This document shows, piece after piece, positions 13,155-62,647 of a DNA stretch of 64,000 bases (the stretch's first letter is position 1; every line of letters starts with the position of its first letter). The notes beneath the pieces are model-generated. The model made no database searches. It saw only the letters and a program-made list of their open reading frames with translations, and was not told where the DNA came from. The DNA is from Thermoplasmata archaeon (GTDB taxonomy: Archaea > Thermoplasmatota > Thermoplasmata > Lutacidiplasmatales > UBA184). The position numbers and the translations under genes were made by a program. Location: assembly GCA_035507575.1 (NCBI GenBank), contig DATJNY010000019.1, forward strand, positions 17,681 through 81,680. Reading direction: 5' to 3'.

Positions 13155-13188
13155 CCGACGGTCCGGGAGTCGTCCGGGGTCTTGAGGG

Positions 13189-33394: not shown

Positions 33395-35176
33395 ATGCCG
33401 AGTCCCAGCGGGGAGTCCGTCGTCGTTCCCGGCCTGAGAGAGCAACTCCCCCTCCCCCTACGGAAGGGGATCCCGGCGGGTGCGAAGCCCAAGGATCGGG
33501 AGACGCTGCTTCGGGAAGGGAAGGATCTCGAGCGCGTACTCGTCCGTCGCGTGGCGGTTCCCGAGAAGGTTTTGATCCAGGCCGAGCTCGGCTACATGCG
33601 CCGCCAGCTCCAGGGAGATCGGCGGAAGGTCGACATCACCTACGGCGTGAACCCCCCGTTCGCGTTCGTTCACATTTCCTTCAATGCGCCGACCGGTGAG
33701 TTCGACTACGATGTCCTCGAGCCGAAGCTGACGGACTCGGAACGATCCCTCGGTTCGGAGATCCGGGCGAAGATGGAGACGATCATGGGGCAGGAGGAGA
33801 TCCCCATCACCGAGGGGGTGGCCCTCGGGGAGTCGCAAGAGCTCAAGGACTACCTCCAAGAAAAGTTCCTGACGGTGCTGGATCTCTACAATATCGACGT
33901 CGCCCCGAAGCGCCAGCCGGTGATGCTGTACTACCTCTTCCGGGAGTTTCTCGGATTCGGGCAGACCGACCCGATCCTCCGCGACCCCTTCCTCGAGGAC
34001 ATCAGCTGCCTCGGGCCGCGCGTCTACATGTACGTGTTCCACCGCGTGTTCGGCTCCCTGCGGACCAACGTGCTCTACTCGAGCGAGATGGAGCTCAACA
34101 AGTACGTTTTCCGGCTCGCGCAGATCGCCGGGAAGCACATCTCCGTCTACCAGCCGATCCTGGACGCCACCCTCCAGGACGGGAGCCGGATCAATCTCAC
34201 GCTCGGGACCGAAGTCACCCGGAAGGGCTCGACGTTCAGCATCCGAAAATTCTCGGCCGATCCGGTATCCCCCATCGACCTGCTGCAGTTCGGCTCGGTG
34301 TCTCCGCACGTGCTCGCCTATTTCTGGAGCCTGATCGAGCACCACCGGTCGATTCTCATCTCGGGCGGAACGGCGGCCGGGAAGACGACGTTCCTCAACG
34401 CGATCTCGATGTTCATCCGACCCGAGGACAAGATCGTCTCGATCGAGGACACACCCGAGATCCAGATCGACCACGAGAACTGGATCCAGTCCGTGGCACG
34501 AACCGGCTACGGCGCCGCTTCGGGAGTGTCGTCGGGGGCATCGGGAGTCTCGGGCCTCTCGTCAACGGCGGGCAAGACGGCCGGGAGCGTGACCCTCTTC
34601 GACTTGCTGGTGGCGGCGCTCCGCCAGAGACCAGAGTACGTGATTGTCGGGGAGGTGCGGGGCGTGGAGGCGTTCACGCTGTTCCAGGCGATTTCGGTCG
34701 GGCACGCCTCGATGTCCACGATTCACGCCGGATCCATCGCGGAGCTCGTCCACCGCGTGGAGAATGAGCCGATGAACATTCCGCGGGTGCTGTTTCAGGC
34801 GCTCGATGCGGTCGCCTTTCCGACGCAGGTCGTCGTGGGACGCAACCGGGTGCGTAGGGTCGTCGGCGTTACCGAGATTCTCGGGGTGGATCCATCCACC
34901 AACGAGCTCCTCACGAACGACGTCTTCCACTGGAGTCCCAGCACCGACTCCTTCCAATTCCTCGGCCGGAGCTTCGTCCTCGAAGAGGTAGGAGAGCGGA
35001 CTGGGAAGAGCATCGACGCCCTGACGGCGGAACTCCAACGCAAGGCGACGTATCTCGATCTGATGACCCGCCTTGGGCTCACGTACTTCCGAGACGTGAG
35101 CCGGGCGATCGGGTCGTATTACGTGGCGCCCGACGACGCGATCCGCGAATTGGAGCGACGGATCACCGCCCGCTGA
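33395..35176 (+). CDS. FlaI/TadA/VirB11-family secretion ATPase (type IV pilus assembly ATPase)
   Basis: Walker A ISGGTAAGKTTFLNAI, Asp/Walker B box IVSIEDTPEIQ and His box GHASMSTIHAGS are present. I prefer the ATG at 33395. A Gly/Ser-rich insertion sits at 34497..34590. Confidence 0.85.
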   Translation: MPSPSGESVVVPGLREQLPLPLRKGIPAGAKPKDRETLLREGKDLERVLVRRVAVPEKVLIQAELGYMRRQLQGDRRKVDITYGVNPPFAFVHISFNAPTGEFDYDVLEPKLTDSERSLGSEIRAKMETIMGQEEIPITEGVALGESQELKDYLQEKFLTVLDLYNIDVAPKRQPVMLYYLFREFLGFGQTDPILRDPFLEDISCLGPRVYMYVFHRVFGSLRTNVLYSSEMELNKYVFRLAQIAGKHISVYQPILDATLQDGSRINLTLGTEVTRKGSTFSIRKFSADPVSPIDLLQFGSVSPHVLAYFWSLIEHHRSILISGGTAAGKTTFLNAISMFIRPEDKIVSIEDTPEIQIDHENWIQSVARTGYGAASGVSSGASGVSGLSSTAGKTAGSVTLFDLLVAALRQRPEYVIVGEVRGVEAFTLFQAISVGHASMSTIHAGSIAELVHRVENEPMNIPRVLFQALDAVAFPTQVVVGRNRVRRVVGVTEILGVDPSTNELLTNDVFHWSPSTDSFQFLGRSFVLEEVGERTGKSIDALTAELQRKATYLDLMTRLGLTYFRDVSRAIGSYYVAPDDAIRELERRITAR

Positions 35177-35179
35177 GCC

Positions 35180-36130
35180 ATGTTCGAGCCAGCGCCCACC
35201 CCGACGCAGAGGACGCGCTCCCCCGGGACGTCGGCGGGGAAGAAGAGGGTCGGTTCGATCGCGGAGAGCTACCGTAGTTTCGCGTACGGCCTGTTTGGGG
35301 AACGGTTCGACCGAGGCGAGGGGGACCCACTTCTCTCCGAGAGGCTGAAGCGGGCGGGCTACGACGTGAGCCCGGGGATGTTTCGCGGGGTCACCATCCT
35401 GACGGCGATCATCGCGGTCGCGGTCACCTTGCCGTTCACGTTGATCCTGTTCCTGCTTCTGATCCACGTCGGGTTTTGGTACGGCTACGTGGTCCTGGTC
35501 CTCGCCGTGACCGTAGGGGCCGTGTTTCTCGGGTTCAGCTCCCTCGTCAGCACACGGATCGCCAACCGAAAGGACCAGCTCGACCGCGAGTTGCCCTTCA
35601 CCTTGAGCGAGCTCTCGGTGCTCGCCAGCACGGGCACGTCTCCCGTTCAGCTCGTCCGCAGGATGGCGGACCGCGATCACGACCTGGCGATGACCGGCGA
35701 GTTCAAGCGCGTCGTCTACAAGATCGATCTCGAGGGCAAGGATCTGATTTCGGCGCTCGCCGAGACCGGTAAGGCCTCCGCGTCGAGCTCGGTCCGGGAA
35801 GCGTTCTGGGATCTCGCGAACATGATCCACCAGGGCGGCAGCCTGGACGAGTACCTTCGGACGAAGGCCGACGACGTGCTGAAGCTAAAGCGGATGATTC
35901 AGAAGCAATTCATCGAGCGTCTCTCGACATTCCTCGACATGTACGTCTCGCTCGTGCTCGTCGGCGTACTGATGATCGCCGTGGGGGCGTTCTTGATCAA
36001 CGCCCTCGGCCAGACCGTGGCGGGGCTCGACGCGAACGAGCTGTTGCTCGTGCTCACGTTCGGGCTCGTTCCGCTCGCGGTCGTCATGACCGTGATCATG
36101 ATCTCGATCGCGTACGCGAGGGCCGAGTGA
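35180..36130 (+). CDS. T2SSF-domain membrane protein (TadB / FlaJ-half-like)
   Basis: The start is 4 nt after the ATPase stop. A cytoplasmic N-terminal domain is followed by 3 TM segments and a conserved cytoplasmic helical region, which is the T2SSF architecture. Confidence 0.75.
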   Translation: MFEPAPTPTQRTRSPGTSAGKKRVGSIAESYRSFAYGLFGERFDRGEGDPLLSERLKRAGYDVSPGMFRGVTILTAIIAVAVTLPFTLILFLLLIHVGFWYGYVVLVLAVTVGAVFLGFSSLVSTRIANRKDQLDRELPFTLSELSVLASTGTSPVQLVRRMADRDHDLAMTGEFKRVVYKIDLEGKDLISALAETGKASASSSVREAFWDLANMIHQGGSLDEYLRTKADDVLKLKRMIQKQFIERLSTFLDMYVSLVLVGVLMIAVGAFLINALGQTVAGLDANELLLVLTFGLVPLAVVMTVIMISIAYARAE

Positions 36131-36134
36131 CCCG

Positions 36135-37544
36135 ATGCGAAGCGCGCTGCTTCTCGCGATCGTGCTGGTCCTCGCCCTCGCACCCCTCTCCGCGGCGCTC
36201 GCTCCGGGTGCGGCCGGACAGCCCAGCCCGATCGGCGTGATCGATGTATCGCCGGCCCCCGGGAGCGTCACTCCGTCGACCACTCCTACGCTCTACGTGA
36301 CCTACTCCGATTCCGGCGGCGACATCAACTATGCCGCGGTATACATCAATCAGATCAATTTCACGGGATTCACCGGGTACGAGTTCACCTCGACCAGCGT
36401 CACGTGTCCCGTCCCTTCGATCCTCGCGCTCAAGCCCGGACTCCAAAATGCGAGCCTGGTCCTCGGCGATGGCTCGGGAAACTCGCTCAACTACACCTGG
36501 AATTTCACGGTGAACCCGAATGCTTCCATCTCGGGTCAGCCGATCTTCTCGATCAGTGCCGGGAAGCTTCTCCTCTACATCGGCATCGCGACCGCGGTCG
36601 CCGGCGCGACGTTCTTCGCGTACATCGCCTACCTGAAACAGACCACCCGATTTGCGTTTCGAAAGTACTTCGCCACGCACCCGATCCAACGGTCGTATCT
36701 CGTCCTCTACATCCCGTGCGCCGCCGCCTTTCTCTTCCTCCTCGTCGGCCTCTCGTACGTCACGGGGACCCCCAATCTTCCCGCGTACTCCCTCGATCTC
36801 GTCTTCATCGGTGCAATATTCATTGCGCTCACCGCGTTTGGCATCGACGCGCGCACTCAGTTGGCGCGCAACCGGGCGTACGAGCGGGCGTTCGCGCAAT
36901 TCCTATTCGAAATGTCCGACGCGATGCGGGGAGGGCTCGACCCCGCGAAAGCGATCACCGAACTCGCGAAGACCCAGACGAACATCCTTCAACGCCCCCT
37001 TCGCGTCGCCTCGGATGGCATCCGGATCGGCCGCCCGTTCGAAGCCGTCCTACGCGACATGGCGCGCGGCCTGAAGAGCCCCCTGATTTCTCGGTACGCC
37101 GACCTGATCGCCGAGGCGACGACGGTCGGCGGGGAGACCGCGGTCGTCATCCATCGGGCCGCCAAGGACATGGATGATTTTGTGAAGATCGAAGAGGAGC
37201 GATCCGCCCAGCTCACTCTTCCCGTCGCGGTCATTTACATTGCGTTCGCAGTGCTCGTGGCGGTCTTGGTCGCTCTGCTTTACATCGCGCCGGATCTCGG
37301 CACGCTCAACATCGGTTTCCTCACGTCGGCAGCCAATCCCTTGAAAGGCCCTACCGCGAGCTCGGTGCCAACCCTCGCCCTGAGCACACTCCATGAGCGC
37401 TTTTTCGAGCTTACCATCATCAACTCTCTTGGCACCGGTGCGATTATCGGAGCGTTTACCGAGGGTCGCGCCCGCTATGGAATCGTGCACTCACTAGGGC
37501 TGGTCGCGGCGACCACGGTGTTGTTTCTCTTCATCTTCCCCTGA
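36135..37544 (+). CDS. T2SSF-domain membrane protein (TadC / FlaJ-half-like) with N-terminal signal peptide and an extracellular beta-rich domain
   Basis: Signal peptide (MRSALLLAIVLVLALAPLSAALA), an extracellular domain of about 140 aa with N-X-T sequons, then a TM plus cytoplasmic helical T2SSF-like region plus two further TM segments. Confidence 0.7.
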   Translation: MRSALLLAIVLVLALAPLSAALAPGAAGQPSPIGVIDVSPAPGSVTPSTTPTLYVTYSDSGGDINYAAVYINQINFTGFTGYEFTSTSVTCPVPSILALKPGLQNASLVLGDGSGNSLNYTWNFTVNPNASISGQPIFSISAGKLLLYIGIATAVAGATFFAYIAYLKQTTRFAFRKYFATHPIQRSYLVLYIPCAAAFLFLLVGLSYVTGTPNLPAYSLDLVFIGAIFIALTAFGIDARTQLARNRAYERAFAQFLFEMSDAMRGGLDPAKAITELAKTQTNILQRPLRVASDGIRIGRPFEAVLRDMARGLKSPLISRYADLIAEATTVGGETAVVIHRAAKDMDDFVKIEEERSAQLTLPVAVIYIAFAVLVAVLVALLYIAPDLGTLNIGFLTSAANPLKGPTASSVPTLALSTLHERFFELTIINSLGTGAIIGAFTEGRARYGIVHSLGLVAATTVLFLFIFP

Positions 37545-37583
37545 CAAGGGGGGCTGAAGCTTCATCCGGGACGAGCCCGCAGA

Positions 37584-38411
37584 CTACGATGGAGCCATGT
37601 ACTGAATCGTTGCGGAACCGAGGAGTCCGTCGCTGCTTGTGACGACGAGTTGGATATTGTAGGTGTCCCCAGCGGTAAGGGTGCTAGTCAGTTCCGCTTC
37701 CTCCCCGTAGAGCGTAGCGATGACGGAGGAGCCCTGCGTCACCGTCCACGCCCAAGACACGATCGTCGCATTCCCTCCTGGCTGAAATGAGTCCGAACCG
37801 TCGAGGAGCGGGATTTGCTCCGGCTCGCCCCCGGAGTAGGTCGTCAGCACCGACACGAGCGCCACGGCGGTGGGTGGCAGGAATGATTGCTCGAACTGGT
37901 TTCCGAGGAAGGTGGAGATCGCGATCGTCGCGTAGCTGGTGGGAACCGGGGCTTGGTCGGGATTCACGAACGAGTAGGTGGGGCCAGAAGTCAGGATCAA
38001 CGAGATTGTCGCCTCTTCGTCGGGTGTCAAAATGAGCTGAGATCCCGCCGTCACGAGATACATGCTATGGTTGACGAGGTCGGTGACTTGATAGTACACG
38101 AGAGGGAAGCCGTTGATCGTAAGGTCGGTCACAGCGATCGAGTTCACGTCCGAACTCGCGATCGAGAACTCGAAGGTCGCGAATCCGGTTCCCGCTGTAT
38201 CGAGCGAGGATGCAATCCCGACAACGCGGATTGATTCGAGCTGGACGAGGTGAATGTGGGCCTGCTCGGCGTTGTATTGCTGCTCGTACGACGCGACGAA
38301 CGCGGCGAGGGTGACCGCGGCGGCGATGACGATGAGAATGAGCATCAGTGTCCCGACGATCTCGGCAAGACCCCGGGAGCCGCGTGTGAGTGAGGGCGAC
38401 CGGCGCCGCAC
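37584..38411 (-). CDS. Archaeal type IV pilin-like protein (class III signal peptide)
   Basis: N-terminus MRRRSPSLTRGSRG|LAEIVGTLMLILIVIAAAVTLAAFV (prepilin-type: basic leader, G at -1, hydrophobic core with GTLML). This is followed by a Ser/Thr-rich beta domain with N-X-S/T sequons. The apparent start is GTG 38411. Confidence 0.7.
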   Translation of the reverse strand: MRRRSPSLTRGSRGLAEIVGTLMLILIVIAAAVTLAAFVASYEQQYNAEQAHIHLVQLESIRVVGIASSLDTAGTGFATFEFSIASSDVNSIAVTDLTINGFPLVYYQVTDLVNHSMYLVTAGSQLILTPDEEATISLILTSGPTYSFVNPDQAPVPTSYATIAISTFLGNQFEQSFLPPTAVALVSVLTTYSGGEPEQIPLLDGSDSFQPGGNATIVSWAWTVTQGSSVIATLYGEEAELTSTLTAGDTYNIQLVVTSSDGLLGSATIQYMAPS

Positions 38412-38439
38412 GCCCGCGGGAGCCGGAAGGTCGCTGATA

Positions 38440-38464
38440 GGAGTTCCTTACGAAAATTGCGTAA
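38440..38464. promoter_or_regulatory. Intergenic palindrome TTACG-AAAATTG-CGTAA with an AT-rich core, between the pilin gene and the flaH-like gene
   Basis: Perfect 5-bp inverted arms with a 7-nt AT-rich spacer at 38448..38464. It lies about 30-50 bp from the pilin start on the minus strand and about 65 bp upstream of ATG 38529. Confidence 0.35.
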
Positions 38465-38528
38465 TCGACCGAAGTTCTTCGCACACTCCCAATGGCATCG
38501 TTAAGCGAATACCTCCGTAACGAGTACC

Positions 38529-39158
38529 ATGGGTATTCCGGTCGAGGTTCCGGGCCTCGACACGATCGTTCCTGTGATTCCGGACGGTCACATCGTGGTA
38601 ATCGAGAGCGGGGCGGACGGCGTCAAGAGCTTCCTCTCCCGACGACTCGCGAAGACGGCCCTGCGCGCTGGCCGTTCGGTAACTTTCATCGCGTCCCGGG
38701 ACGGGCCGGAACTTTCCCAATCGCTTCTGATCGGCAACGACCTGCCACCCACGCGGGGGGACGGGTTGCGTGTTGAGGAACGGGACTCGCTGGTCGGTTG
38801 GCAAGACGTCGACTCGCTGCGCGGGGTTCTCGTCGTCGATTCGTTCTCATTCCTTGCGCTGAATCTGCCGCCAAGCCAGCTCTCCGAGCTCCTGCGCCGA
38901 CTGCGGCGGTTGGGCCACGCCCAGGGGCTCACGGTGATCCTTGCCACCGACCGCGGGATGGCGGACGAGAGGTCGGAATCGATCCTCGGACACCTCTCCG
39001 ATGGCTGGATTCAATTCCTTTCGAAGGAAGGGCCCGAGGGCCTGATTCGCTATCTACGCGTACCGAAATGGTCGGACGGAACACTCGTCGACCGCAACAT
39101 CTACTACGAGTATGACGGTAAGCGCCTTGCCATTGACCTTCGGCGCCGAGTGTTGTAA
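38529..39158 (+). CDS. FlaH/ArlH-like KaiC/RecA-superfamily ATPase-fold protein (degenerate Walker A)
   Basis: 209 aa with a RecA-like core: IVVIESGADGVKSFLS (Walker A-like, with Lys-Ser retained) and a hydrophobic strand plus D (VLVVDSFS) as the Walker B position. Size and pattern are those of archaeal FlaH. Confidence 0.6.
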   Translation: MGIPVEVPGLDTIVPVIPDGHIVVIESGADGVKSFLSRRLAKTALRAGRSVTFIASRDGPELSQSLLIGNDLPPTRGDGLRVEERDSLVGWQDVDSLRGVLVVDSFSFLALNLPPSQLSELLRRLRRLGHAQGLTVILATDRGMADERSESILGHLSDGWIQFLSKEGPEGLIRYLRVPKWSDGTLVDRNIYYEYDGKRLAIDLRRRVL

Positions 39159-39170
39159 GGAGGCTCGCTC

Positions 39171-40289
39171 ATGCCCGGATCTTCCTACGATCGATTCGGT
39201 CTCACGAGCAATCCCTTCCGGGACCTCGCCAGCGAGAGCTTGGAGGATGTGGAGATCTACCACGTCAATCTCGACATCGACCGAACCCTCGATACGATCC
39301 GAGAGGAGATCTACGCGAAGGAAAATCGCGCGCTGATCGCGCTCGTGGGCCTGCACGGAGCCGGCAAGACGGAACGGCTCCTGATGGCTCAGGAAGAGGC
39401 GAGGGATCGAGGAGCCTTCAGCGTCTACTTCGACATCACCACCAAGACCACGTGGGTAACACGAGGGCTGGCCGCGTCGTTCCGCAAGTCGGCGAATCTC
39501 GGTGGATTCGCCCAGATCTTCAGCGCCCCGCGGTGGTACCGGGACATCGCTGCCCTCGAGCGGATGAAGGACCGAAACTACGATCCGTTGAAAGCCGGCC
39601 GCGCTCTCGCCGAGGCCCTGAACGCGCACGCGCCCGCGTTTCTACTGCTGAACGACCTGCACAACCTCGCCGCGTCGGATGAACTGGGAATCTTCGCGAA
39701 GGTCCTCCAAGAGATGGTCGACAAAATCAAGCCGGGGGTTCTCGTCATGTTCGGGTGCTTTCCGAGCTTCATGCTGCAACTCGCTACGCATCAGGCTCCC
39801 CTGTCGAGCCGGATCAACCGAACCCTAATTCTCCCCCGCCTGACCCCGGAGGAAGCTTCGTTGCTGCTGGCGAAGAAACTATTGGCCAAACGACTGGTCG
39901 AAGGACTGGATCCGCTCTACCCATTCGATCAAGAGTCCGTGTCGCGACTGAACCAATACGCGTACGGCAACCCCCGAAGGCTGCTCGAGCTCGCGGACGT
40001 TTGCATCGAATTCGCGGTAGCCCACCGCTCCTACCGCATCGACACGGAGATCGTGCGCAGTGCGCTCCTCGAACGTCAAGTCCAGGACCTGAAGTCGGAG
40101 GTCGAGGCGCGATCGGACGGGTGGAAGGAGGACCCCCCGGCGGGAGGGATCGAGCCCCTACCCAACGACACCGTTTACATTGAAGGGAGGGCGCCCGCCG
40201 GAGCAACGATCCCCACAGCGATCACCCCGACCGCTCAGCGCAGTTCCGACCGGACTACTAGTGGTGGGCCGGGGCCGGCTCCCCCATGA
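39171..40289 (+). CDS. AAA+ ATPase, ExeA/GspA-like
   Basis: The N-terminal FGLTSNPF motif is typical of ExeA-like ATPases. Walker A is LVGLHGAGKTERL and Walker B is LLLNDLHNL. The C-terminus is Pro-rich. Confidence 0.6.
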   Translation: MPGSSYDRFGLTSNPFRDLASESLEDVEIYHVNLDIDRTLDTIREEIYAKENRALIALVGLHGAGKTERLLMAQEEARDRGAFSVYFDITTKTTWVTRGLAASFRKSANLGGFAQIFSAPRWYRDIAALERMKDRNYDPLKAGRALAEALNAHAPAFLLLNDLHNLAASDELGIFAKVLQEMVDKIKPGVLVMFGCFPSFMLQLATHQAPLSSRINRTLILPRLTPEEASLLLAKKLLAKRLVEGLDPLYPFDQESVSRLNQYAYGNPRRLLELADVCIEFAVAHRSYRIDTEIVRSALLERQVQDLKSEVEARSDGWKEDPPAGGIEPLPNDTVYIEGRAPAGATIPTAITPTAQRSSDRTTSGGPGPAPP

Positions 40290-54009: not shown

Positions 54010-54924
54010 ATGCCACACGGCGGCTCACCGAACGGGATGCCGGCGCCCGCCACGGGAGGGGTTCGGCTGATCCACGGCGACGCGCGCCGCCTCGCGGGGG
54101 TCGATGACGCGTCGGTCCACCTCGTCGTCACCTCCCCGCCGTACCCGATGATCCCTCAGTGGGATGGCCTGTTCCGGACGCTCGGCGCGACGCGCTACGC
54201 CGGCATGCTCCGCGTCCTCTCCGACGCCTGGCGGGCCTGCTACCGCGCACTCGTCCCGGGCGGGATCCTGGCGGTGAACATCGGGGATGCCCTGCGCACC
54301 CGTGCGGGAGAGTTCCGTCTCTGGCCGAACGCCGCCCACACGCTCGCCGACGCGGAACGGATCGGGTTCCGGCCGCTGCCGTACGTGCTATGGAAGAAGC
54401 CGACCAACAAGCCGAACGCCTTCCTCGGCTCGGGATTCGTCCCGCCGAACGCCTACGTCACGCTCGATTGCGAGTACGTGCTCCTGTTCCGGAAGGGCGC
54501 CCTGCGGCGCCTGCCGCCCCACGATCCGGCGCGCGCGGCGAGCCGGTTCTCCCGCGCGGAGCGCGACCGGTGGTTCAGCCAGATCTGGACGGACGTGCGC
54601 GGGGTGCGACAGGCGACGTCCCGAGGCCGCAGCGCCGCGTTCCCGCCGGAGATCCCGGAGCGACTCATCCGGATGTTCTCGCTCGTGGGGGAGACGGTGC
54701 TCGACCCGTTCGCCGGAACGGGCACCACACTCGCCGCCGCCGCGCGCTGGGGCCGGAACGCGATCGGGGTCGAATGGGACCTCCCGACGTTCCGCGCGCT
54801 CGCGTCGGCGGGCCGCGCCCGGGGCTGGACGGTGATCACTCCGCGGGCGGGAGCGGCGGACGGGCCCGGTGCGCCACCTCGTCGTCGACGGCCTGCTTCA
54901 GGTACTGGAGCGCGGACGGGCTGA
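54010..54924 (+). CDS. DNA methyltransferase (N6-adenine/N4-cytosine, beta-class) with no restriction endonuclease recognised beside it
   Basis: Catalytic motif IV SPPY (HLVVTSPPYP) precedes the SAM-binding motif I (DPFAGTGTT). Start is ATG 54010; the upstream portion of ORF 52078.. is antisense junk. Confidence 0.75.
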   Translation: MPHGGSPNGMPAPATGGVRLIHGDARRLAGVDDASVHLVVTSPPYPMIPQWDGLFRTLGATRYAGMLRVLSDAWRACYRALVPGGILAVNIGDALRTRAGEFRLWPNAAHTLADAERIGFRPLPYVLWKKPTNKPNAFLGSGFVPPNAYVTLDCEYVLLFRKGALRRLPPHDPARAASRFSRAERDRWFSQIWTDVRGVRQATSRGRSAAFPPEIPERLIRMFSLVGETVLDPFAGTGTTLAAAARWGRNAIGVEWDLPTFRALASAGRARGWTVITPRAGAADGPGAPPRRRRPASGTGARTG

Positions 54925-55399
54925 GCCGATCCAGGTGCAGCAGGAGATAGTGCAGGTACAGGCGCTCCGGCCGGTGGGAGGGTCCGGGCGCGCGCGGGGG
55001 GTTTCCCGGTGCCGACTCGACCTCGGCCCGGTGGCGTTCGAGCGTCTCCGCGTGGTGCTCGTGCTCCGTGCCGTGGTACGAACGGCCGACCGGTCCGACG
55101 AGCGGAGGATACACGTGCCCCACGGGATCGTACGGGGCCGGTTCGACGACCGCGCGGCGCGGCGGCGACGCCCACGGGGGGCGCTCCCGTTCGGGGGCGG
55201 ACGGGAGCTTGCCTTCGAGGTACGGGTGGACGGGCCGGTCGGGGTCCTGGAGCTCGCCGATCGGGCGTCCCGCCACGTCCTCGACGATCGACTTCAGGTT
55301 CCAGCTGGTCTTGCGTCGCGGAGGGCGGTCGGAGCTCGCTTCGGCCTCCACGTCCGACGCTCCCGACGGGGACTCATAAACCTGTGTTTGGAGCGGCAC
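54836..55399 (-). CDS. Hypothetical protein (187 aa), His/Pro-rich
   Basis: It overlaps both the ATPase stop (26 nt) and the convergent methyltransferase 3' end (89 nt), so its reality is uncertain. Confidence 0.3.
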   Translation of the reverse strand: MPLQTQVYESPSGASDVEAEASSDRPPRRKTSWNLKSIVEDVAGRPIGELQDPDRPVHPYLEGKLPSAPERERPPWASPPRRAVVEPAPYDPVGHVYPPLVGPVGRSYHGTEHEHHAETLERHRAEVESAPGNPPRAPGPSHRPERLYLHYLLLHLDRLSPSALQYLKQAVDDEVAHRARPPLPPAE

Positions 55400-57056
55400 C
55401 CGGCGCCCCGCCGGACGCCCCGAGCCGTTCGGTCAGGAAGGCGACTTCCTCCGACGCCGCGACGATCGCGAGCGGGAGGTGGAGCTCCCCGATGCGCCAG
55501 AGGGATTCCGAGTACCCCGTCTCTCGCGGCAGGCGCGCCTTCGGGAGCCAATCGGCCTCCGCCGCCGTGAGCCCGAAGAACTCCCGGGTCGCCCGCGAGA
55601 CCTCGGGAAGGCGGAGGAACGCCGTCGCCCGAAGGTTCCGCAGGGTCGCCCGGCCCTCCTCGGTGGCGAGGAAGTCGTCGGGCGCCTGACTCAGCAGCAG
55701 GATTCCCGCATCGAAGTGGCGCACGTGCCGGACGATCCGGTCCAGGAACTCGGCGATCGCCGGGGAGCGCACGAGGAGGTGCGCCTCGTCGAGGACGAGG
55801 AGCTTCGCTCCGGGCCGCGCCCGCATTCGGCCGTACGCCCAGTCGAGGAGGTACGCGAGATGGAACGCGAGCTGGTCCGCGGGCACTCCGCGAAAGTCGA
55901 CCGCCACCGGTCCGGCGGCCGTGGAGAGGGTTGTGGGGCCGTTGACGCTGGAGAGCGAGCCCGAGCGAAACACGTCCAGCAGCGTCGGGAGTCGCCCCGC
56001 GCCCGCCCTTCCGTCGTCCACCTCGGTCAGCAGGTCCTCGAACGTCGGGACCTCGGGGCCTCGGGTGTAGAGCCGGGAGATCGCGGCGTCGAGGGTCGCC
56101 GCTTCCCCGTCGTCCAGGCTCGGGAAGAGCGCGCGCAGCATCGACGCGACGCGCGCCGCCTTCTCCCGTCGGTCGCCGCCCGTCGTGATCGGGTCGAGCG
56201 GATTCAGCCGCCCCGTCCCTCCGTCCCCGACCGTCACCACGGACCCTCCCAGAGACCGCACGAGCGGGCCGAACTCTCCCAGCGGATCGAGGATCGTCAT
56301 CTCGACGTTCGGTCGGGTCCATCGGGTGCGCAGGAGGTACAGCGCCGCCGCGAACGTCTTGCCCGCCCCGGTCGTGCCGAAGATCCCCCAGGAGTAGCTC
56401 GGGTGCTCCCACCGATTGAGGAACACCGGGCTCGCGTCGGAGAGCGCCAGCCCGACCAGGATGCCGCCCGGCTCGACCACGCTCTCGTCGCCGAAGGGGT
56501 AGAGCGCCGCGACGCCATCGGTCGGCAGCGTGTGCCAGTACCCGACGGGCCGGGGCTCGGTGCCGGTGAGATCGGGCGGAGCCAGGGCGGCCCGGACCTC
56601 GTAGCGCGGGATCCGCGGACGAAAACCGAAGCCCGAGAGTCGCTCGGCGAGGCGGGCCCGGACCGCCTCGACCCGTGGGCGGGAGGCCGCCGTCGCGACG
56701 AACCGCACCCCGACGCGCCAGAGCTCCTGGGTCCGTCGCGCCACGGCCCGTCCGAAATCCTCGGCCGAGGTCCGCTCGACCTCGAGCTCTGAGGTACGGA
56801 CGCCACCCCCCGACGCGATCTCCGCCTCGGCCACCGTTCGGGCGCCGTGGAGGATCTCGAGCGCCCGCTCCGGCGGGAGGCGATGGAATTCGAGGAACAG
56901 GTCGACCGGCTCGGTCGTCGGCACGGCCCGACCGAGGAATCCGAACGGGAGCTCGGGCGGGAACTGGGCGACGAGCAACGGCGCCGAGTACGCTCCTCCC
57001 GACCGGCGCCACGTCGCCCCCTCTTCCACGCCGGCCCGGGGCGCTTGGCCGGTCAT
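55374..57056 (-). CDS. VirB4/TrbE/HerA-FtsK-like (DUF87-type) DNA-transfer ATPase
   Basis: Walker A GIFGTTGAGKTFAA, Walker B KLLVLDEAHLL and a downstream LLLSQAP motif. Start is ATG 57056, with an ATGA overlap to the upstream gene. Confidence 0.75.
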   Translation of the reverse strand: MTGQAPRAGVEEGATWRRSGGAYSAPLLVAQFPPELPFGFLGRAVPTTEPVDLFLEFHRLPPERALEILHGARTVAEAEIASGGGVRTSELEVERTSAEDFGRAVARRTQELWRVGVRFVATAASRPRVEAVRARLAERLSGFGFRPRIPRYEVRAALAPPDLTGTEPRPVGYWHTLPTDGVAALYPFGDESVVEPGGILVGLALSDASPVFLNRWEHPSYSWGIFGTTGAGKTFAAALYLLRTRWTRPNVEMTILDPLGEFGPLVRSLGGSVVTVGDGGTGRLNPLDPITTGGDRREKAARVASMLRALFPSLDDGEAATLDAAISRLYTRGPEVPTFEDLLTEVDDGRAGAGRLPTLLDVFRSGSLSSVNGPTTLSTAAGPVAVDFRGVPADQLAFHLAYLLDWAYGRMRARPGAKLLVLDEAHLLVRSPAIAEFLDRIVRHVRHFDAGILLLSQAPDDFLATEEGRATLRNLRATAFLRLPEVSRATREFFGLTAAEADWLPKARLPRETGYSESLWRIGELHLPLAIVAASEEVAFLTERLGASGGAPGAAPNTGL

Positions 57057-57448
57057 GGCGCCGCCGTCCCCGAAGCGTGGCGTGCACGGCGCGGGGAGAA
57101 CTCGGCCCATCCAAGCGGGAGCAGCGACGCCGCCAGGCCCAGCGCCCGGACCGGAGTCCACGGCGACGGAGCGAGCGCGAACGCCACCGCTCCCGCGCCG
57201 ACCGACAACCACGCCACCATCGTTCCGACGCCGAGTGGGGCCGGCGCGGCCGCGCCGGGCCGGTGACGCGACGCCCAGCCGGCGATCGCGAGCGCGACGA
57301 GCGCCACGACGAGGGAGTCCAGATACGGCAGGAGGATCGCGAGAGCGCCGACGACGAGCCCCAGCGCGAGGGCGGTCCGAAACGGGTCGAGTTCGATCGG
57401 CACCCCGCGTCCGCCGGTCGGGGGAACGGGCCGCGGCGTCACGTCCAC
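57053..57448 (-). CDS. Small membrane protein (about 3 TM)
   Basis: GTG start overlapping the upstream stop. The protein is hydrophobic throughout. Confidence 0.5.
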   Translation of the reverse strand: MDVTPRPVPPTGGRGVPIELDPFRTALALGLVVGALAILLPYLDSLVVALVALAIAGWASRHRPGAAAPAPLGVGTMVAWLSVGAGAVAFALAPSPWTPVRALGLAASLLPLGWAEFSPRRARHASGTAAP

Positions 57449-58203
57449 CCCACGCGACGCGCCGCGTCGAACAGCCGGCCGTCTCGCAGGCGCGTCGCCG
57501 CGATGCCGCATTCCCCGAGTCGATCCGCGAGGCCCTCGGACCGGCGGTCGAGGTCGTCGCGTCCGTCCCGGCCCGCCCCGGCGGCGACGAGCGTGAGGTA
57601 GACCTGTCGCACCCGGCGGCGTCGGCAGATCATCTCCACGAGCTCGGCGTACGTCGCGCGGGCGGCCGCGTCGGGACCCGGCGCACCGGGCGGGGGCAGC
57701 CGCACGAGCGCGACGGCCATCGGGGTCGTGGTGATCCAGAGGCCAAGGTCGCCGTCGAACGACCGGAGGACGGTGCGAAACGTATCGAAGCGTCGGGCGA
57801 GGTCGGAGGGCGGGAGGTACGTGATCGGCGTGCCGCCGGCCCGGACGATCGCACCGGGACGGCCGTCCGGCGCAGGAACGAATCCCAGTCGAAGTCCCGC
57901 ACGCAGGGTCGGGGGGATCACCATGCGCACCCCCGGATCGCGCCCCAAGCGCCAATGCAGGTACGCGAACGCGCGCTCGTCCAGCGCCTGTCCGTCCGTC
58001 CGCACGACGCAGGCCGCGAACGCCGTCGCGACCGCGACGAGCCAAAGGCCGGCGCCGGTGAACGGGACGACCGCCGCGCTGACCGCGGCGTAGGTAACGA
58101 AGCGCAGGGCGTCCCGCGCCGACGAGAACGGCCCGAGCCGGAGCCGCCGGTCGACCCGCTCCGGGATCGCGGCCACGGGGGGACCGTCTCCGGGGTCGTC
58201 CAT
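57439..58203 (-). CDS. Hypothetical membrane protein (N-terminal TM hairpin plus soluble domain)
   Basis: ATG start 1 nt after the upstream stop. TM hairpin: FVTYAAVSAAVVPFTGAGLWLVAVATAFAACVV. Confidence 0.55.
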   Translation of the reverse strand: MDDPGDGPPVAAIPERVDRRLRLGPFSSARDALRFVTYAAVSAAVVPFTGAGLWLVAVATAFAACVVRTDGQALDERAFAYLHWRLGRDPGVRMVIPPTLRAGLRLGFVPAPDGRPGAIVRAGGTPITYLPPSDLARRFDTFRTVLRSFDGDLGLWITTTPMAVALVRLPPPGAPGPDAAARATYAELVEMICRRRRVRQVYLTLVAAGAGRDGRDDLDRRSEGLADRLGECGIAATRLRDGRLFDAARRVGWT

Positions 58204-58204
58204 C

Positions 58205-59344
58205 TCATCCTCGCCCTCCGTAGCCCGTGTCGACCGCCGGCCACCGTCCGGGTCCGTTGGGGTGCTTCGCGCGGCTCTGCAGGTGCCGCACGAGGTGCGC
58301 CGCGCCGTGCCCGGCGACCTGTGCCGCCGCGAGCGGGAGCGCGACCGGTGCCGAGGCCGACCCGGCCACCCGCAGCGCCCCGCTCGCCGCCTGGCGCCCC
58401 GCCGAGCCGGTGGACGGGGGCGCCGCGGACGGCGCTGCGTACCCGGAGACCCCGGTGGGGGCGGCGGCGAGGCCGCGTTGCGCCCCGCCCCCGATGGCGC
58501 TAGCGCTCCCGGGGAAGCCGAACGCGGTGAGATGCGTGCCGGCGAGCGAGAGGAGATACGGGGACGCGAGCGCGCAGCCGAGGTAGCCGACGAGGAGCAC
58601 GATCGTCGGGCTCCCGACGGCGAGTTCGAGCGGGACGATCAGCACGCACGGCAGGAAGACGAGCTCGACGAACAGGAACCAGGCCCGCCGCGCGAGCGGC
58701 GCGAGCGGCCGGAACGGCCAGAGCAGCGTGAAGATCGGCAGGAGCACGAGCAGCACCGCGAGGAGGGCGTCGCGCAGGCCGACGGCCAGCACGAGCCCGA
58801 AGACGAGGAAGAACTCGACGAGGGAGAGGACGAACGCCAGCGCCCCGTTGTCCCAGGAGAACTTCCCCTGGCCGATCCCGGCGAGGTTCACCCAGTGCTG
58901 CCACGCGCCACCGTCCCAGCCCGCGAGGACCGGATACAGCCCGGCGCCGACCGCGAGGATCGCCCCGGCGATCGGCACGGTGAAGTTCGCGGCGACGACG
59001 GCGATCACGAGCCGCGGGAGGAGGGCGTCGAGCTCGTTGGCCCAGCGGGCGATCGACGCACGAGCGAGGTAGCAGATCGCGACCCCGAGCGCGACGAGCG
59101 CGATCGCCGGATCGACGATGTTCGCGAGCGTGTACGTCGAGAAGCTCGTGGCTCCGGCGAGGTAGTTCGACGGGTCGGAGGTGCTCGCGACGAGCGGGGG
59201 GTAGAGCGCCGCCGGGGAGAGCTCCGGGACCAGCAGCTGGTCGTACGTCGGGCCGACGACCGCCGAGACGAGCGCGGTCAGCCCGGCGAAGAGGAAGAAC
59301 AGGATCGCCTGGATGATGCTGGCCCAATCGATCCCGAGCGGCAT
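58205..59344 (-). CDS. Polytopic membrane protein (at least 7 TM), VirB6/TrbL/CedA-like candidate
   Basis: Hydrophobic throughout, with a Gly/Ala/Ser-rich C-terminal tail. Confidence 0.55.
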   Translation of the reverse strand: MPLGIDWASIIQAILFFLFAGLTALVSAVVGPTYDQLLVPELSPAALYPPLVASTSDPSNYLAGATSFSTYTLANIVDPAIALVALGVAICYLARASIARWANELDALLPRLVIAVVAANFTVPIAGAILAVGAGLYPVLAGWDGGAWQHWVNLAGIGQGKFSWDNGALAFVLSLVEFFLVFGLVLAVGLRDALLAVLLVLLPIFTLLWPFRPLAPLARRAWFLFVELVFLPCVLIVPLELAVGSPTIVLLVGYLGCALASPYLLSLAGTHLTAFGFPGSASAIGGGAQRGLAAAPTGVSGYAAPSAAPPSTGSAGRQAASGALRVAGSASAPVALPLAAAQVAGHGAAHLVRHLQSRAKHPNGPGRWPAVDTGYGGRG

Positions 59345-59359
59345 CGTCCCGGTCCCGGG

Positions 59360-59749
59360 TCAGCTGCCCGTGAGCACCCAGTGCGCGAGCCCCCAGACGA
59401 GGCCGGTGATCGCGGCGACGAACAGCAGGCTCCCGATGAGCGCGTCCCGCGCGCGCTCCTTCGCCTGGATCTTCTTCGTGACGTCGTGGGAGAACCAGCT
59501 GAGCGCCACCCGCGCCCAGACGAGGGCCAGCAACCCGCTCCCCGCGACCCCGACGAGTTCGACCAGGCGGTTGATCGACGCGGTGAAGTTCGAGACGGGG
59601 GTCGACGAGGCGGACGGGACGACGGTCGCCGTGCCGAGGGGGTGGGTCGGGATCGACGCCGTCGTGGCCGGCCCCAGGCTCGCGCCGAGCACGAGCGCGA
59701 GGCCGAACAGCGCGGTCGCGCGGGGGCCGATCATCGCTCGCTCGACCAT
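59360..59749 (-). CDS. Small membrane protein with signal peptide plus two TM helices (VirB2/TrbC-pilin-like topology)
   Basis: 129 aa: signal-like N-terminus, a hydrophilic Ser/Thr stretch, then a TM hairpin (LVELVGVAGSGLLALVWARVALSWF / LIGSLLFVAAITGLVWGLAHWVL). Confidence 0.5.
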   Translation of the reverse strand: MVERAMIGPRATALFGLALVLGASLGPATTASIPTHPLGTATVVPSASSTPVSNFTASINRLVELVGVAGSGLLALVWARVALSWFSHDVTKKIQAKERARDALIGSLLFVAAITGLVWGLAHWVLTGS

Positions 59750-61920
59750 GCGAGGATCTCCCCTCCCTCGGAGTCGATCTCGGATCGGAGCGTACCGTCC
59801 GCCTTCAGTCGGTCGATCGTCGCGGCGGCGAGCTCGATCGGCACGCCGGCCTCGTCGGCGAGGAGTTCCACGGTCGCACGGTCGGCCCCTTCGGCCGGTT
59901 CGATGATCCCGCGCAGGACCTCCCGGGCGTCGACCGGCGGAGGAGGGGGCGAACGGGATCGGAGGTGCCGTCGCCAGAGGGAGAACGCTCCCATCGCGAC
60001 CCCGACGGCGACGACCAGGCCCGTGACGAGGAGGGGCTCCGCCTCACTGGCGCCGGCACCGGCACGGGAGGCGTTGGGGGGGGTCGGGGCCGGTGGCGGG
60101 ACGACGGGGGCGCGCGCGGTCGAGTTCGCGACGACCCCGAGCGCGTCGACGACCGTGATGCGAAGATCCAAGAGACCACCGATCCCGGTCGTGAACGCCT
60201 CGATGAACGCCCCGTCCGACGAGATCGTCCGGTTCCATTCGAGGCCGGCCGTCGCGCTCACGTTCACCTGGAACGGGGGGACCCCCCCCGCGACGCGGAG
60301 GCCGAGCGCGAAATCGCCGGCCGGCGGCAATCCCGACGGGTCCACGGAGACCTGCACGGCGAGCGGCGGAACGACGACCAGCGCGGCGAGGGCGGTTGCC
60401 ACGCCCCCGGCCGCGTCGGCCACGACGACCGTCAAATTGACGGACCCCTCGACCGAGTAGTTCGCGCTCCAGCCGAAGGCACCCACCGTCGAGAGGTTTC
60501 CGGCGGCGGGGGAGCCGTTCGTCGCAGCGCACGACGGGACGACGGCCCAATCGAACGGGGGCGTGCCCGCGAGGACGCTCCCGGTGACCTGCAGTGCGGC
60601 GCCGTCGGACGTGGGGGTCCGCGCCGAGATCGCGGTGACCACGAGCGCCGGATCGACCACGAGCGGCGTCGTCGCGTTCGTCGCGGCGACTCCGTCGGCG
60701 TCGGTGAGACGTGCTGCGAGCGAGAGGTCGCCGGCGACCGAAGGCACGATCGGAAGGAACACCCGCCCGTCGGCCGCGGCCGTCTCGGTTCCCTGCTCGG
60801 AGGTACCGATCTCGGACCACGTGAGCTGGAACGGGGGAACGCCGCCCGCGATCTCGAACGGCACCGCGCTCGGGAGGCCGACCTCCGCGGTGACGTTCCC
60901 CCCGACCGGGGTCAGCGTCGGGAGGGGCTCGACGTCCTCGGAGAATCCCGCGGTGACCCCGACCCCCGGGACCGGAGGGAAGACCTCGAACAGGACCGAG
61001 CCGGCTCCGACGTCCGAGAAGGCGCAGGAGAGGTTCGTGATCGACGCGTTGCCGAAATCCTCGGGCCGGGCCGGGTTCGTGCACGACCATCCCCAACTGG
61101 AGCCGTTCGGCAGATCGAGCGTCGTCGCTCGGAACTCGAGGGAGGTACCGACGTCGACGGACGTCGCCGGGGCGGCGAGCCCCGCCGCGAGCCCGTCGGA
61201 GACGGTCAGGTCCGCGTCGACCGTGCCGCGGGTCGATTGTCCGGCGGCATCGACCACGACGACGAGCGGTCGGTAGCTCCCGCTCGCGAAGCGATGGGAG
61301 GTCACGAACGATCCCGGGCGCTCTACGGTGAGGTTCGTCGAGCGCCCGTCCCCCCACGCGACCGAGACGAGATACGGCGGGAGTCCGCCGTCGATCTCTC
61401 CGGTGACGTTCGCGGTCCCGTTCTCGCGAAGGGGATTCGGGCTCGCCACGAGGTTCGTCACGCGCACGGGCGCGACGACGGTCACGTTCGCCTCCGCGAA
61501 CCCGAGCAGGACCCGGGCGGTCGCACCGCAGGTCATCCCGCTCGCGGATCGCACCGCGATCGCGGTCGTCCCCGTCTCGGCCGAGGTCCCGAAGAACGTC
61601 GCGTTCTCGGAGGTGGTCGTCCCGAGCACCCCTTCGGCCGTCGCGCCCACCAGCCCCCAGCGGAACCAGAGCGGGGCGAGCGAGCAGCGCGGTGGGAGGC
61701 CGACCCACGCGGCGGAGAGGGACGTGGAGTTCCCCGCGGCGAGTCGCCAGGTGCTCGGATCGACGATCAGCTCCGGCTCGGGCTCGACGGCGGTCCCGAT
61801 CGGGCCGCTCCGCGACGCCTCCCTGGGGAGGGGAGCCGGGAGGAGCAGCAGGGCGACGATCGCCCCGCCCGCCAGCGCGAACCACGGACAGACCCGCACA
61901 CCGGAATTCGCGCGTCCCAC
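59731..61920 (-). CDS. Large cell-surface protein with PKD-like repeats, C-terminal TM anchor and a short cytoplasmic tail
   Basis: Signal peptide, then repeated modules of about 90 aa carrying GG(L/V)PP(F/Y) signatures (PKD-like), a TM near the C-terminus (LLVTGLVVAVGVAMGAFSLW) and a cytoplasmic tail of about 70 aa. Its stop overlaps the next gene. Confidence 0.65.
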   Translation of the reverse strand: MGRANSGVRVCPWFALAGGAIVALLLLPAPLPREASRSGPIGTAVEPEPELIVDPSTWRLAAGNSTSLSAAWVGLPPRCSLAPLWFRWGLVGATAEGVLGTTTSENATFFGTSAETGTTAIAVRSASGMTCGATARVLLGFAEANVTVVAPVRVTNLVASPNPLRENGTANVTGEIDGGLPPYLVSVAWGDGRSTNLTVERPGSFVTSHRFASGSYRPLVVVVDAAGQSTRGTVDADLTVSDGLAAGLAAPATSVDVGTSLEFRATTLDLPNGSSWGWSCTNPARPEDFGNASITNLSCAFSDVGAGSVLFEVFPPVPGVGVTAGFSEDVEPLPTLTPVGGNVTAEVGLPSAVPFEIAGGVPPFQLTWSEIGTSEQGTETAAADGRVFLPIVPSVAGDLSLAARLTDADGVAATNATTPLVVDPALVVTAISARTPTSDGAALQVTGSVLAGTPPFDWAVVPSCAATNGSPAAGNLSTVGAFGWSANYSVEGSVNLTVVVADAAGGVATALAALVVVPPLAVQVSVDPSGLPPAGDFALGLRVAGGVPPFQVNVSATAGLEWNRTISSDGAFIEAFTTGIGGLLDLRITVVDALGVVANSTARAPVVPPPAPTPPNASRAGAGASEAEPLLVTGLVVAVGVAMGAFSLWRRHLRSRSPPPPPVDAREVLRGIIEPAEGADRATVELLADEAGVPIELAAATIDRLKADGTLRSEIDSEGGEILAWSSER

Positions 61921-61969
61921 GGTCGCACCGGCCGTGGGAACGGACGGGGGATACTTCCTCGGCCGTCGC

Positions 61970-62647
61970 TCAGCGGTGGGTGGAAGGTGGCGGTGGAGCG
62001 AGAACCAGCGCGACGTGCTCCTTCGAGAACGGGGCGAGCTCGGCTTCGGCGCGCACCGAGAACCCGGCGCGATGGAGTTCGGCGCGCGCCTCCCGCACCA
62101 CCGCCGGGACCGGTCGGCGTTGCGTGACGGATCGCACCTTCAGCATGAGCACTCCCGTCCCGGTCGGCCCGAGCGCGGTCCGGGCGTTCTCCACGAAGAT
62201 CCCCACCTGGTTCCGCTGGGCGACGTCCTGATAGACGAGGTCGACGAGCCCCACGTCGGCGGCGTACCGTTCGGGGAGCTGCGCGTCCGCGAGGATGGGG
62301 AGCAGGTTCTCTCTCCGGCGCGCGAGCGCGAGGAGGGGCGCGAACGACGCCGGACTCTTCTCCACCGCGAAGACCGTGCCGCCGGGATCGAGCTCGGCGA
62401 GGTGGCTGACCGTGGTCCCGTGCGCCGCGCCGAGGTAGAGGATGCGCCGGACCCCGGTGAGAAGGTCCGGGGGCGCCCCCTTCCGCAGGAACGCCGCGAG
62501 CTTCGAGCGGAACGGGTCCCACTGACGGTACTCGATCTCGCCGGATCGGCGCAGCTCCTCTCCGTAGACCCGCTCCCCCGGGCGGGCGTTCCGAGTGTAC
62601 AGCTCGCGCCCCTCGCGGAAGACGCCGGGCCACGCGGTCGGTTCCAT
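61970..62647 (-). CDS. flpA: Fibrillarin-like rRNA/tRNA 2'-O-methyltransferase
   Basis: Fibrillarin motifs (RILYLGAAHGTTVSHLAEL, VFAVEKSP, the DV..P.Q region). Confidence 0.8.
   Translation of the reverse strand: MEPTAWPGVFREGRELYTRNARPGERVYGEELRRSGEIEYRQWDPFRSKLAAFLRKGAPPDLLTGVRRILYLGAAHGTTVSHLAELDPGGTVFAVEKSPASFAPLLALARRRENLLPILADAQLPERYAADVGLVDLVYQDVAQRNQVGIFVENARTALGPTGTGVLMLKVRSVTQRRPVPAVVREARAELHRAGFSVRAEAELAPFSKEHVALVLAPPPPSTHR

Follow-up and report, generated by a model that had tools for sequence, protein, structure and literature searches.

What is a conjugation-type ATPase doing in a tight cluster of membrane-protein genes on an archaeal chromosome, next to the gene for fibrillarin? 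The question is raised by a stretch of 64,000 nucleotides, the whole of which was analysed and is called the window here, from a Thermoplasmata archaeon of the Lutacidiplasmatales, UBA184 (GenBank assembly GCA_035507575.1, contig DATJNY010000019.1, positions 17,681 to 81,680 of the forward strand). A preliminary description, made from the letters alone, had noticed six coupled minus-strand genes and likened them to a minimal archaeal DNA-transfer apparatus of the Ced or Ted kind, perhaps chromosomal rather than recently mobile. ORF listing and start-codon analysis show seven co-directional minus-strand genes at 54836-61920, which we name g1 to g7. Profile comparisons place the ATPase, g6, in the VirB4 family, and the module is fixed at one chromosomal site throughout its lineage. 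It is very probably a domesticated, vertically inherited derivative of a type IV secretion system (T4SS).

The identification of the module starts with g6. In the NCBIfam scan its product matched the conju_CD1110 VirB4 model with E=1.8e-29 over ~390 residues, VirB4_plasma (Mbov_0397, the VirB4 model of a Mycoplasma integrative and conjugative element, ICE) with E=1.6e-24, TIGR00929 VirB4_CagE with E=9.6e-14 and TraC with E=6e-11, and its sole significant match in the PDB was the Thermoanaerobacter VirB4 4AG5 (E=1e-12). As all scores against the VirB4 models are under the equivalog cut-offs, g6 is to be seen as a distant member of the family. The motifs that had first suggested an ATPase are in place: the Walker A motif GTTGAGKT (aa 227-234, 56355-56378) and the Walker B motif LLVLDEAHLL (aa 419-428, 55773-55802). 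We placed the start at 57056 (560 aa), and not at the first GTG of the ORF at 57212 (a maximal ORF of 612 aa), because the homologues are 554-564 aa long.

The protein also matches Pfam DUF87, AAA_10 and P-loop_TraG. DUF87 is the central domain of HerA, and the NCBIfam scan gave in addition a weak local match to CedD, a HerA-clade protein, which could mean that g6 is a housekeeping DNA translocase of the HerA or FtsK type, engaged in repair or division, and that its membrane-protein neighbours are unrelated to it. However, the matches to the VirB4 models are much the stronger ones (E from 1e-29 to 1e-11 over ~390 residues), while the CedD match covers only ~50 residues around Walker B (E=2.9e-8); the best PDB match is a VirB4; and the profile scans gave no FtsK_SpoIIIE match and, of the HerA type, only the generic DUF87. 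Nor is there a NurA, Mre11 or Rad50 neighbour, whereas 4-nt overlaps tie the ATPase gene to g5 and g4 lineage-wide and the neighbours match T4SS_pilin and PrgI. The view of g6 as a housekeeping translocase, which the preliminary description had named as the outcome that would undo it, is thus already contradicted, and we give it very little credence: judged by its sequence, g6 is a conjugation ATPase of the VirB4 family and not an FtsK or HerA protein. A viral reading was also rejected, the PHROG scan having given just one weak terminase P-loop match. The closest plasmid relatives of g6 are found on haloarchaeal plasmids (22-27% identity over 92-97% of the protein), and the ATPase of the Thermococcus plasmid pT33-3, whose conjugation is known from experiment, is 22% identical over 91% of g6; the Gram-positive TrsE and CD1110 VirB4s are further plasmid relatives.

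Is the module then a conjugative element that arrived recently, or the decaying remnant of one, without a function for the host? The plasmid-borne nature of the closest ATPase relatives outside the lineage, the MGE-like (mobile genetic element) context of a distant homologous module, and the presence in the same window of a low-GC block and a tRNA gene could all be taken in favour of this possibility. The distribution of the module gives another answer. A scan of the GTDB species representatives found 96 relatives, of which 80 loci were returned. The seven genes recur in unchanged order in these loci, which come from distinct species-level Thermoplasmata genomes, UBA184, a member of Candidatus Lutacidiplasmatales (TMEG), among them. 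In every sufficiently long locus the order is identical and runs from RidA and fibrillarin through g1-g7 to a methyltransferase gene on the opposite strand and an Hps/RraA gene; this includes a 2.18-Mb chromosome and contigs of up to 2.3 Mb, and the same synteny is found in a more distant sister group in which g4 is only ~33% identical. ATPase homologues at 65-75% identity number in the hundreds, and every one with a named source is from a 'Thermoplasmata archaeon' metagenome-assembled genome (MAG), on contigs of up to 1.8 Mb. The ORFs are intact throughout the loci. The median identity of g6 to the window, 66%, is that of the housekeeping neighbours (fibrillarin 67%, RidA 66%), and g6 identity correlates with neighbour identity (Spearman 0.56-0.66); the ATPase thus evolves as slowly as fibrillarin, and the mature domain of the putative pilin is nearly invariant. 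The GC content of the module (72-75%) equals that of its flanks and agrees with that of the window (72%), as the preliminary description had stated for the chromosome.

At the annotated orthologous loci, none of the usual marks of a conjugative element was found, that is, linked relaxase, VirD4, integrase or replication genes, or a variable site. Relaxase, VirD4 and integrase genes were absent within +/-10 kb, the search being confined to the locus neighbourhood, and neither an integrase nor att-like features adjoin the module. As to the low-GC block, it lies at least about 12 kb off and encodes type IV pilus genes. The module is fixed on the chromosome at one site, diverges together with its housekeeping neighbours and is under purifying selection. 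The suggestions of the preliminary description that relaxase and integrase are missing and that the system is chromosomal have therefore both held, the latter across 80 species-level genomes and a sister group, and the idea of a recent integration is effectively refuted.

Homologous modules outside the lineage give some indication of where the machinery came from. Distant members of the g3 family still stand in the order g3-g4-(g5)-VirB4. One such module (locus L088, 8179-14084, GCA_027081835.1, 41% GC) is surrounded by ParA, MazE, SLFN/AlbA, AbiEii and PDDEXK genes, a context resembling that of an MGE, and another (locus L090, 111-3638), which like L088 is on an unrelated low-GC archaeal contig, lies beside tRNA methyltransferase, UbiA, PcrB and PurL genes. 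Taken with the synteny and the co-divergence, the MGE-like distant relatives fit a history in which machinery of a mobile element was captured long ago and has since been inherited vertically.

The coordinates are collected in Table 1. All six ORFs of the preliminary description are present on the minus strand at the positions it gave, and the cluster it recognised is real; the count has to be raised to seven, since g7, which is co-directional, begins 22 nt past the ATPase stop. The claim that all junctions overlap by 4-19 nt stands for three of the five: g1/g2 (19 nt, or 4 nt if translation begins at the ATG at 59734), g4/g5 (4 nt, GTGA) and g5/g6 (4 nt, ATGA). The other two are gaps, of 15 nt at g2/g3 and 1 nt at g3/g4. 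Of 74 related loci, 72 have g5, and the two 4-nt overlaps flanking it recur across these. Together, the seven genes make up a single compact unit, all in one direction and in part overlapping. A TATA-like box is present in the 49 nt that separate the stop of fibrillarin from the start of g1, and a box of the form [AG]A[AT][AG]TA recurs in the fibrillarin-g1 spacer of 24 of 54 distinct orthologous loci, compared with 0.035 expected per 110 nt. Because of this recurrence, the box is probably the module's own promoter.

Table 1. Genes of the module, its flanks and the type IV pilus-like locus (positions in the window)
Feature	Position	Strand	Length	Description
g1	59731-61920	-	729 aa	N-terminal signal/transmembrane segment, ectodomain, transmembrane helix, cytoplasmic tail
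g2	59360-59749	-	129 aa	VirB2/TrbC-like pilin candidate
g3	58205-59344	-	379 aa	polytopic membrane protein; candidate VirB6/TrbL/CedA-like channel subunit
g4	57439-58203	-	254 aa	PrgI/VirB3-like transmembrane hairpin and cytoplasmic alpha/beta domain
g5	57053-57442	-	129 aa	small membrane protein with 2-3 transmembrane segments
g6	55374-57056	-	560 aa	VirB4-family ATPase
g7	54836-55351	-	171 aa	soluble protein
TATA-like box	61953..61958	-		GAAGTA; putative promoter element
Fibrillarin gene	61970-62647			directly upstream of the module; Pfam E=2e-55
RidA-like gene				upstream of the module, with fibrillarin
N6/N4 DNA methyltransferase gene	54010-54924	+		downstream of the module, opposite strand
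Hps/RraA fusion gene				downstream, beyond the methyltransferase
T2SSE ATPase	32957-35176			type IV pilus-like locus; E=6e-32
T2SSF membrane proteins (two)	35180-36130 and 36135-37544			type IV pilus-like locus
KaiC/FlaH-like protein	38529-39158			type IV pilus-like locus
Proteins with class-III-signal-peptide-like N-termini (two)	31655-33154 and 37584-38411

If g6 is a VirB4, are its neighbours the remaining parts of a T4SS? The best candidate for a pilin is g2. In an alignment of 38 orthologues, a variable N-terminus resembling a signal peptide precedes a nearly invariant mature domain of ~80 aa, in which a basic loop (consensus SNDVTKKVQAKDRARD; SHDVTKKIQAKERARD in g2 of the window) connects two hydrophobic helices, the design of VirB2 and TrbC. 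T4SS_pilin (PF18895) is the sole Pfam family that recurs, being matched in 17 of the 38 orthologues; its best E-value is 4.8e-4, that of the window protein is 0.025, and every match is under the gathering score. These matches and the domain design point, weakly, to a VirB2-type pilin processed by removal of a signal peptide.

The second candidate is g4, which has a transmembrane (TM) hairpin at aa ~29-66 and a cytoplasmic alpha/beta domain at aa ~100-254. PrgI (PF12666), the VirB3 of Gram-positive bacteria, was matched in 12 of 46 g4 homologues (best E=6e-4, under the gathering score), and the actinobacterial SCO6880_fam was matched with E=8e-4 in the NCBIfam scan. An AlphaFold2 (AF2) model, with a predicted local distance difference test score (pLDDT) of 77.7, shows the hairpin followed by a beta-alpha-beta domain, and the Foldseek matches of highest probability to this model are TrwK chains, none of them significant. 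For its part, g6 is shorter at its N-terminus than a full-length VirB4 by roughly 200-285 residues, and the CD1110 model is aligned to it only from profile position 286. Given the TrwK matches of the g4 domain and this late start of the CD1110 alignment, the simplest reading is a split VirB3-VirB4 arrangement, in which the N-terminal domain of VirB4 is divided and part of it is fused to VirB3 in g4; this evidence suggests, still weakly, that g4 is a VirB3/PrgI-like hairpin carrying the piece of the VirB4 N-terminal domain that g6 lacks. There is a precedent in Ced, where the VirB4 N-terminal domain is shared out between CedB and CedD (PMC11868833). Comparisons by hhalign of g4 or of its domain with the single PrgI and VirB4 sequences of the bacterial plasmid pTZC1 were not significant. 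The matches of g2 and g4 together speak against the possibility, raised in advance, that the membrane proteins would show no similarity to any T4SS or Ced profile.

The remaining membrane proteins can be placed mainly by context. With ~6-7 TM helices and a C-terminus that is disordered and rich in Ala and Pro, g3 stands in the position of VirB6, the order polytopic protein, PrgI, VirB4 being found also on pTZC1. Precomputed TrbL_3 flags were on 15 of 120 listed g3 homologues, weak or faint where their strength was reported; an hmmscan of 39 orthologues and 10 distant representatives found no VirB6, TrbL, CedA or TedA, and hhalign of g3 with the polytopic protein of pTZC1 was not significant. 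The g3 family is very small and makes up 40 clusters in a set of 1.84 billion representatives. From position and topology, we take g3 as a candidate VirB6-like channel subunit. A pilin duplication within g3, as reported for CedA/CedA1, was rejected, hhalign of g2 with g3 being negative. Profiles of g2, g3 and g4 run against the PDB sequences, a set that we assume to cover the archaeal pilus entries and in which TedC (8dft) is present, retrieved no chain at E<=1, and hence no pilin for g2.

The small protein g5, translationally coupled on both sides, gave no consistent Pfam or hhalign match, and tests of it as a second pilin or as a VirB6 fragment were negative. At the end of the module, g7 has no predicted TM segment and a central low-complexity linker that varies in length and sequence. 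It is conserved in the motifs RRxSWxLKxIVEDVAGRPI, YDPVxxxYPPLVGxxGRxYHG..HEHH and PERLYLHYLLLHxDRLS, is 42-82% identical in about 78 loci, and matches nothing in Pfam, NCBIfam or PHROG; it is specific to the lineage and does not occur in the distant MGE-like relative L088.

At the other end, g1 is predicted to have an N-terminal signal/TM segment, an ectodomain of ~600 aa, a TM helix at aa 630-649 and a cytoplasmic tail at aa ~660-729. Its description as a PKD-repeat surface protein found little backing, the matches being a sub-threshold one to Big_13 and faint ones to PKD in orthologues, to which a partial match to the Ig domain of PamR can be added. The ectodomain contains three GG[LV]PP[YF] motifs and a fourth, AGTPPF, spotted by eye at about aa 452, and the protein has 19 N-glycosylation sequons. 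The tail gives many weak winged-helix matches, including HTH_24, MarR, Rrf2, GntR and DprA_WH. No part of the module evolves faster: identity between loci is only 26-45% in the ectodomain, in contrast to a conserved tail. The gene is gone from five loci of one sublineage (L064, L065, L068, L075 and L083); in L064 there is a stand-alone protein of 104 aa resembling the winged-helix tail (7050-7364), and in L083 a short secreted TM protein takes the place of g1. By its sequence features, g1 is probably an accessory adhesin for contact or recognition.

How does this set of parts compare with known systems? With the Ced system of the Sulfolobales (CedA, CedA1, CedA2, CedB, CedD, CedE), the module shares a chromosomal location, a VirB2-like pilin (here the candidate g2), a polytopic protein, small membrane protein(s) and a VirB4-related ATPase (PMC9905601, PMC11868833), the lack of a relaxase or coupling protein (here, near the locus), a VirB4 N-terminal domain spread over two polypeptides, CedB and CedD there and apparently g4 and g6 here (PMC11868833), and a type IV pilus locus, which here is in the same genome region, as Ups pili are in the Sulfolobales. 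It differs in that CedB belongs to the HerA clade whereas g6 is a bona fide VirB4, in that CedA1 is unprocessed whereas g2 has an apparently cleaved signal peptide, and in having a candidate VirB3/PrgI-like protein, a single operon, the additional g1 (probable adhesin with winged-helix tail) and g7, and a mesophilic soil euryarchaeon as host. Apart from the ~50-residue CedD match, no sequence homologues of Ced were detected by the NCBIfam scan or with the g2, g3 and g4 profiles against the PDB.

The Ted system of the Thermoproteales is likewise chromosomal, with a true VirB4 (TedB), a VirB2-like pilin processed by signal-peptide cleavage (TedC) and a VirB6-like protein (TedA), of which g2 and g3 are the candidate counterparts. 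However, the g2 profile did not match TedC in the PDB, the Ted genes are scattered and have ParA/VirC1-like, Rad50 and HerA genes with them, whereas those described here form a tight seven-gene operon without them, and the hosts belong to another phylum; neither homology to TedA, TedB or TedC nor linkage to ParA, Rad50 and HerA was found. The similarity to a Ced/Ted-like core that had been proposed at the outset is therefore borne out by the VirB4 ATPase and, weakly, by the pilin and PrgI matches, but by sequence no component could be recognised as belonging to Ced or Ted, and similarity to VirB6 or CedA is undemonstrated. The module appears to be functionally closest to Ced and Ted and, judged by sequence, a member of neither.

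Two other groups of systems share parts with it. The T4SSs of the Patescibacteria (CPR) have an MPF-FATA-related VirB4, PrgI/VirB3, VirB6 and a T4SS_pilin-type VirB2, and are chromosomal, lineage-wide and usually relaxase-less (PMC12102498). These systems are bacterial and thought to serve an epibiotic lifestyle, and no VirB3-VirB4 fusions are reported for them, whereas the present host is an archaeon that lives freely, the candidate VirB3 is fused to what resembles the VirB4 N-terminal domain, and the accessory genes are others. The archaeal conjugative plasmids (pT33-3 and haloarchaeal megaplasmids) and the Gram-positive MPF-FATA systems (pCF10 Prg, CD1110/TrsE) have the closest outside ATPases (22-27% identity over 85-97% of g6); they differ in being on plasmids or ICEs with a VirD4 and, in bacteria, also a relaxase, and in having a full-length VirB4. 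When hidden Markov models of g1-g5 and g7 from the lineage were run against the haloarchaeal and pT33-3 plasmid loci, they found nothing, and only the ATPase was recovered there. In the literature, all that we found on such a system is an annotation-level mention, for Cuniculiplasma, of VirB4 together with genes of membrane proteins (PMC5155288); nothing was found on the present lineage.

Based on these comparisons, the module may be seen as a monoderm-type (MPF-FATA-like) T4SS derivative, chromosomal and vertically inherited, that serves DNA exchange of the Ced/Ted kind, a combined statement that we hold with slightly more confidence than doubt. A possible mechanism can be outlined by analogy. 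g4, g5 and g3 would anchor a g6 hexamer at the membrane, and g6 would extract processed g2 from the membrane, which would then polymerise into a conjugative-type pilus or a short conduit, with g3 as the channel subunit. The rapidly diverging and glycosylated adhesin g1, with its conserved winged-helix tail, might mediate contact with a partner cell and its recognition, and through the machine cells of one lineage might exchange chromosomal DNA, probably importing it in the manner of Ced in the Sulfolobales. Intercellular DNA exchange is considered the likeliest function because no relaxase, coupling protein or integrase is nearby and because the archaeal derivatives that have been studied exchange DNA; taken as the specific role, it comes near an even call at best.

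Several points weigh against this proposal. That DNA is the substrate would follow purely from the analogy with Ced and Ted (PMC9905601); the genes for DNA processing that characterise Ted (HerA, Rad50, ParA) are not beside the module; neither by sequence nor by structure does g3 match VirB6, TrbL, CedA or TedA significantly, and its AF2 model is poor (pLDDT 62); every assignment other than that of the ATPase is under curated thresholds; and a search of the neighbourhood alone leaves room for a VirD4 or a relaxase elsewhere in the genomes. The main rival explanation therefore accepts the same T4SS-derived pilus or translocon and gives it a use that does not involve DNA, such as adhesion or aggregation, biofilm formation, delivery of proteins or toxins, or uptake of macromolecules or nutrients from neighbouring cells, this last use having been proposed for the relaxase-less chromosomal T4SS of the Patescibacteria. 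Consistent with such a use, the neighbourhood contains no relaxase, coupling protein or DNA-repair gene, and g1 is large and adhesin-like at the surface. Moreover, the chromosomal VirB4, PrgI, VirB6 and T4SS_pilin of the Patescibacteria are thought to have been co-opted for non-conjugative purposes, and T4SS_pilin, the weak match of g2, is among the pilin profiles used in the survey of that group (PMC12102498). However, Ced and Ted, the only two chromosomal T4SS derivatives of archaea studied by experiment, both exchange DNA (PMC9905601, PMC11868833), and the Candidatus Lutacidiplasmatales, in a paper that makes no mention of secretion, pili or conjugation, are described as high-GC soil archaea of ~2.1 Mb that live freely as organoheterotrophs (PMC9287336), and are not reduced epibionts. 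In addition, no conserved effector-like or toxin/immunity genes adjoin the module, and the cytoplasmic tail of g1 resembles a nucleic-acid-binding winged helix. We consider a role unrelated to DNA unlikely.

Some further observations concern variation at the locus and its surroundings. Three species (loci L006, L034 and L048) have ~1.1-1.3 kb inserted between the ATPase gene and g7, and in L003/L004 g7 and the methylase gene are separated by a nucleotidyltransferase/HepT toxin-antitoxin pair (12364-13172), so that the module tolerates small insertions. The MAG WH2.bin150 contains the module region twice, in differing versions on two contigs (L047 and L071), with ATPases 65% and 59% identical to that of the window, which could reflect a mixed bin or a real duplication. 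The distant module L088 encodes a 605-aa protein with a weak pilin-like segment. The 3' ends of g7 and the convergent methyltransferase gene overlap by 89 nt as called (54836-54924), and the same overlap is found in locus L001 (12129-12217); no restriction partner of the methyltransferase is visible, and in almost every locus its gene is syntenic with the module.

Elsewhere in the window, the low-GC block extends over ~21-43 kb (57-64% GC versus 72% elsewhere) and contains the archaeal type IV pilus-like locus at 31655-40289, which is reminiscent of the Ups pili, the partners of Ced. A tRNA was found by Rfam at 27768-27867 on the minus strand (100 nt, 46.7 bits, presumably intron-bearing), while ARAGORN finds none in the window; the site is in the low-GC block where the GC content starts rising toward the genome level. 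The genes at 23249-25381 (+) and 25631-27124 (-) encode large secreted or membrane-anchored proteins without a Pfam match at E<=0.001. By eye, the 710-aa protein of this pair has a Hint/intein-like C-terminal segment, CVASGTPILTPEGY..., and the 497-aa one carries YVTN-like repeats of the beta-propeller kind and, at its C-terminus, a TM helix.

To our knowledge, domesticated chromosomal conjugation machines are known only from two hyperthermophilic crenarchaeal orders, as Ced and Ted, and, in bacteria, from the Patescibacteria. We tentatively propose, as a possibility somewhat less likely than not, that the module is a third independent archaeal domestication and the first in the Thermoplasmatota/Euryarchaeota. 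The Lutacidiplasmatales (TMEG) would then have, as part of their core and inherited vertically, a DNA-exchange apparatus of an undescribed architecture, in which VirB3 is joined to a separated part of the VirB4 N-terminal domain, the VirB2 pilin is processed, and a hypervariable adhesin is present, with a conserved winged-helix tail that may couple recognition to DNA handling and is a free protein where the adhesin is lost; g7 would be a further part. If this is true, a third instance, unrelated in sequence and fixed beside fibrillarin in a globally distributed uncultured order of soil and peat, would suggest that archaea in general, and not just those of hot, DNA-damaging habitats, have repeatedly recruited T4SS parts to exchange cellular DNA. 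The partition of the VirB4 N-terminal domain between polypeptides would provide a natural experiment, and the nearly invariant pilin, the hypervariable adhesin and the split VirB3-VirB4 would give handles on gene flow and species cohesion in soil archaea.

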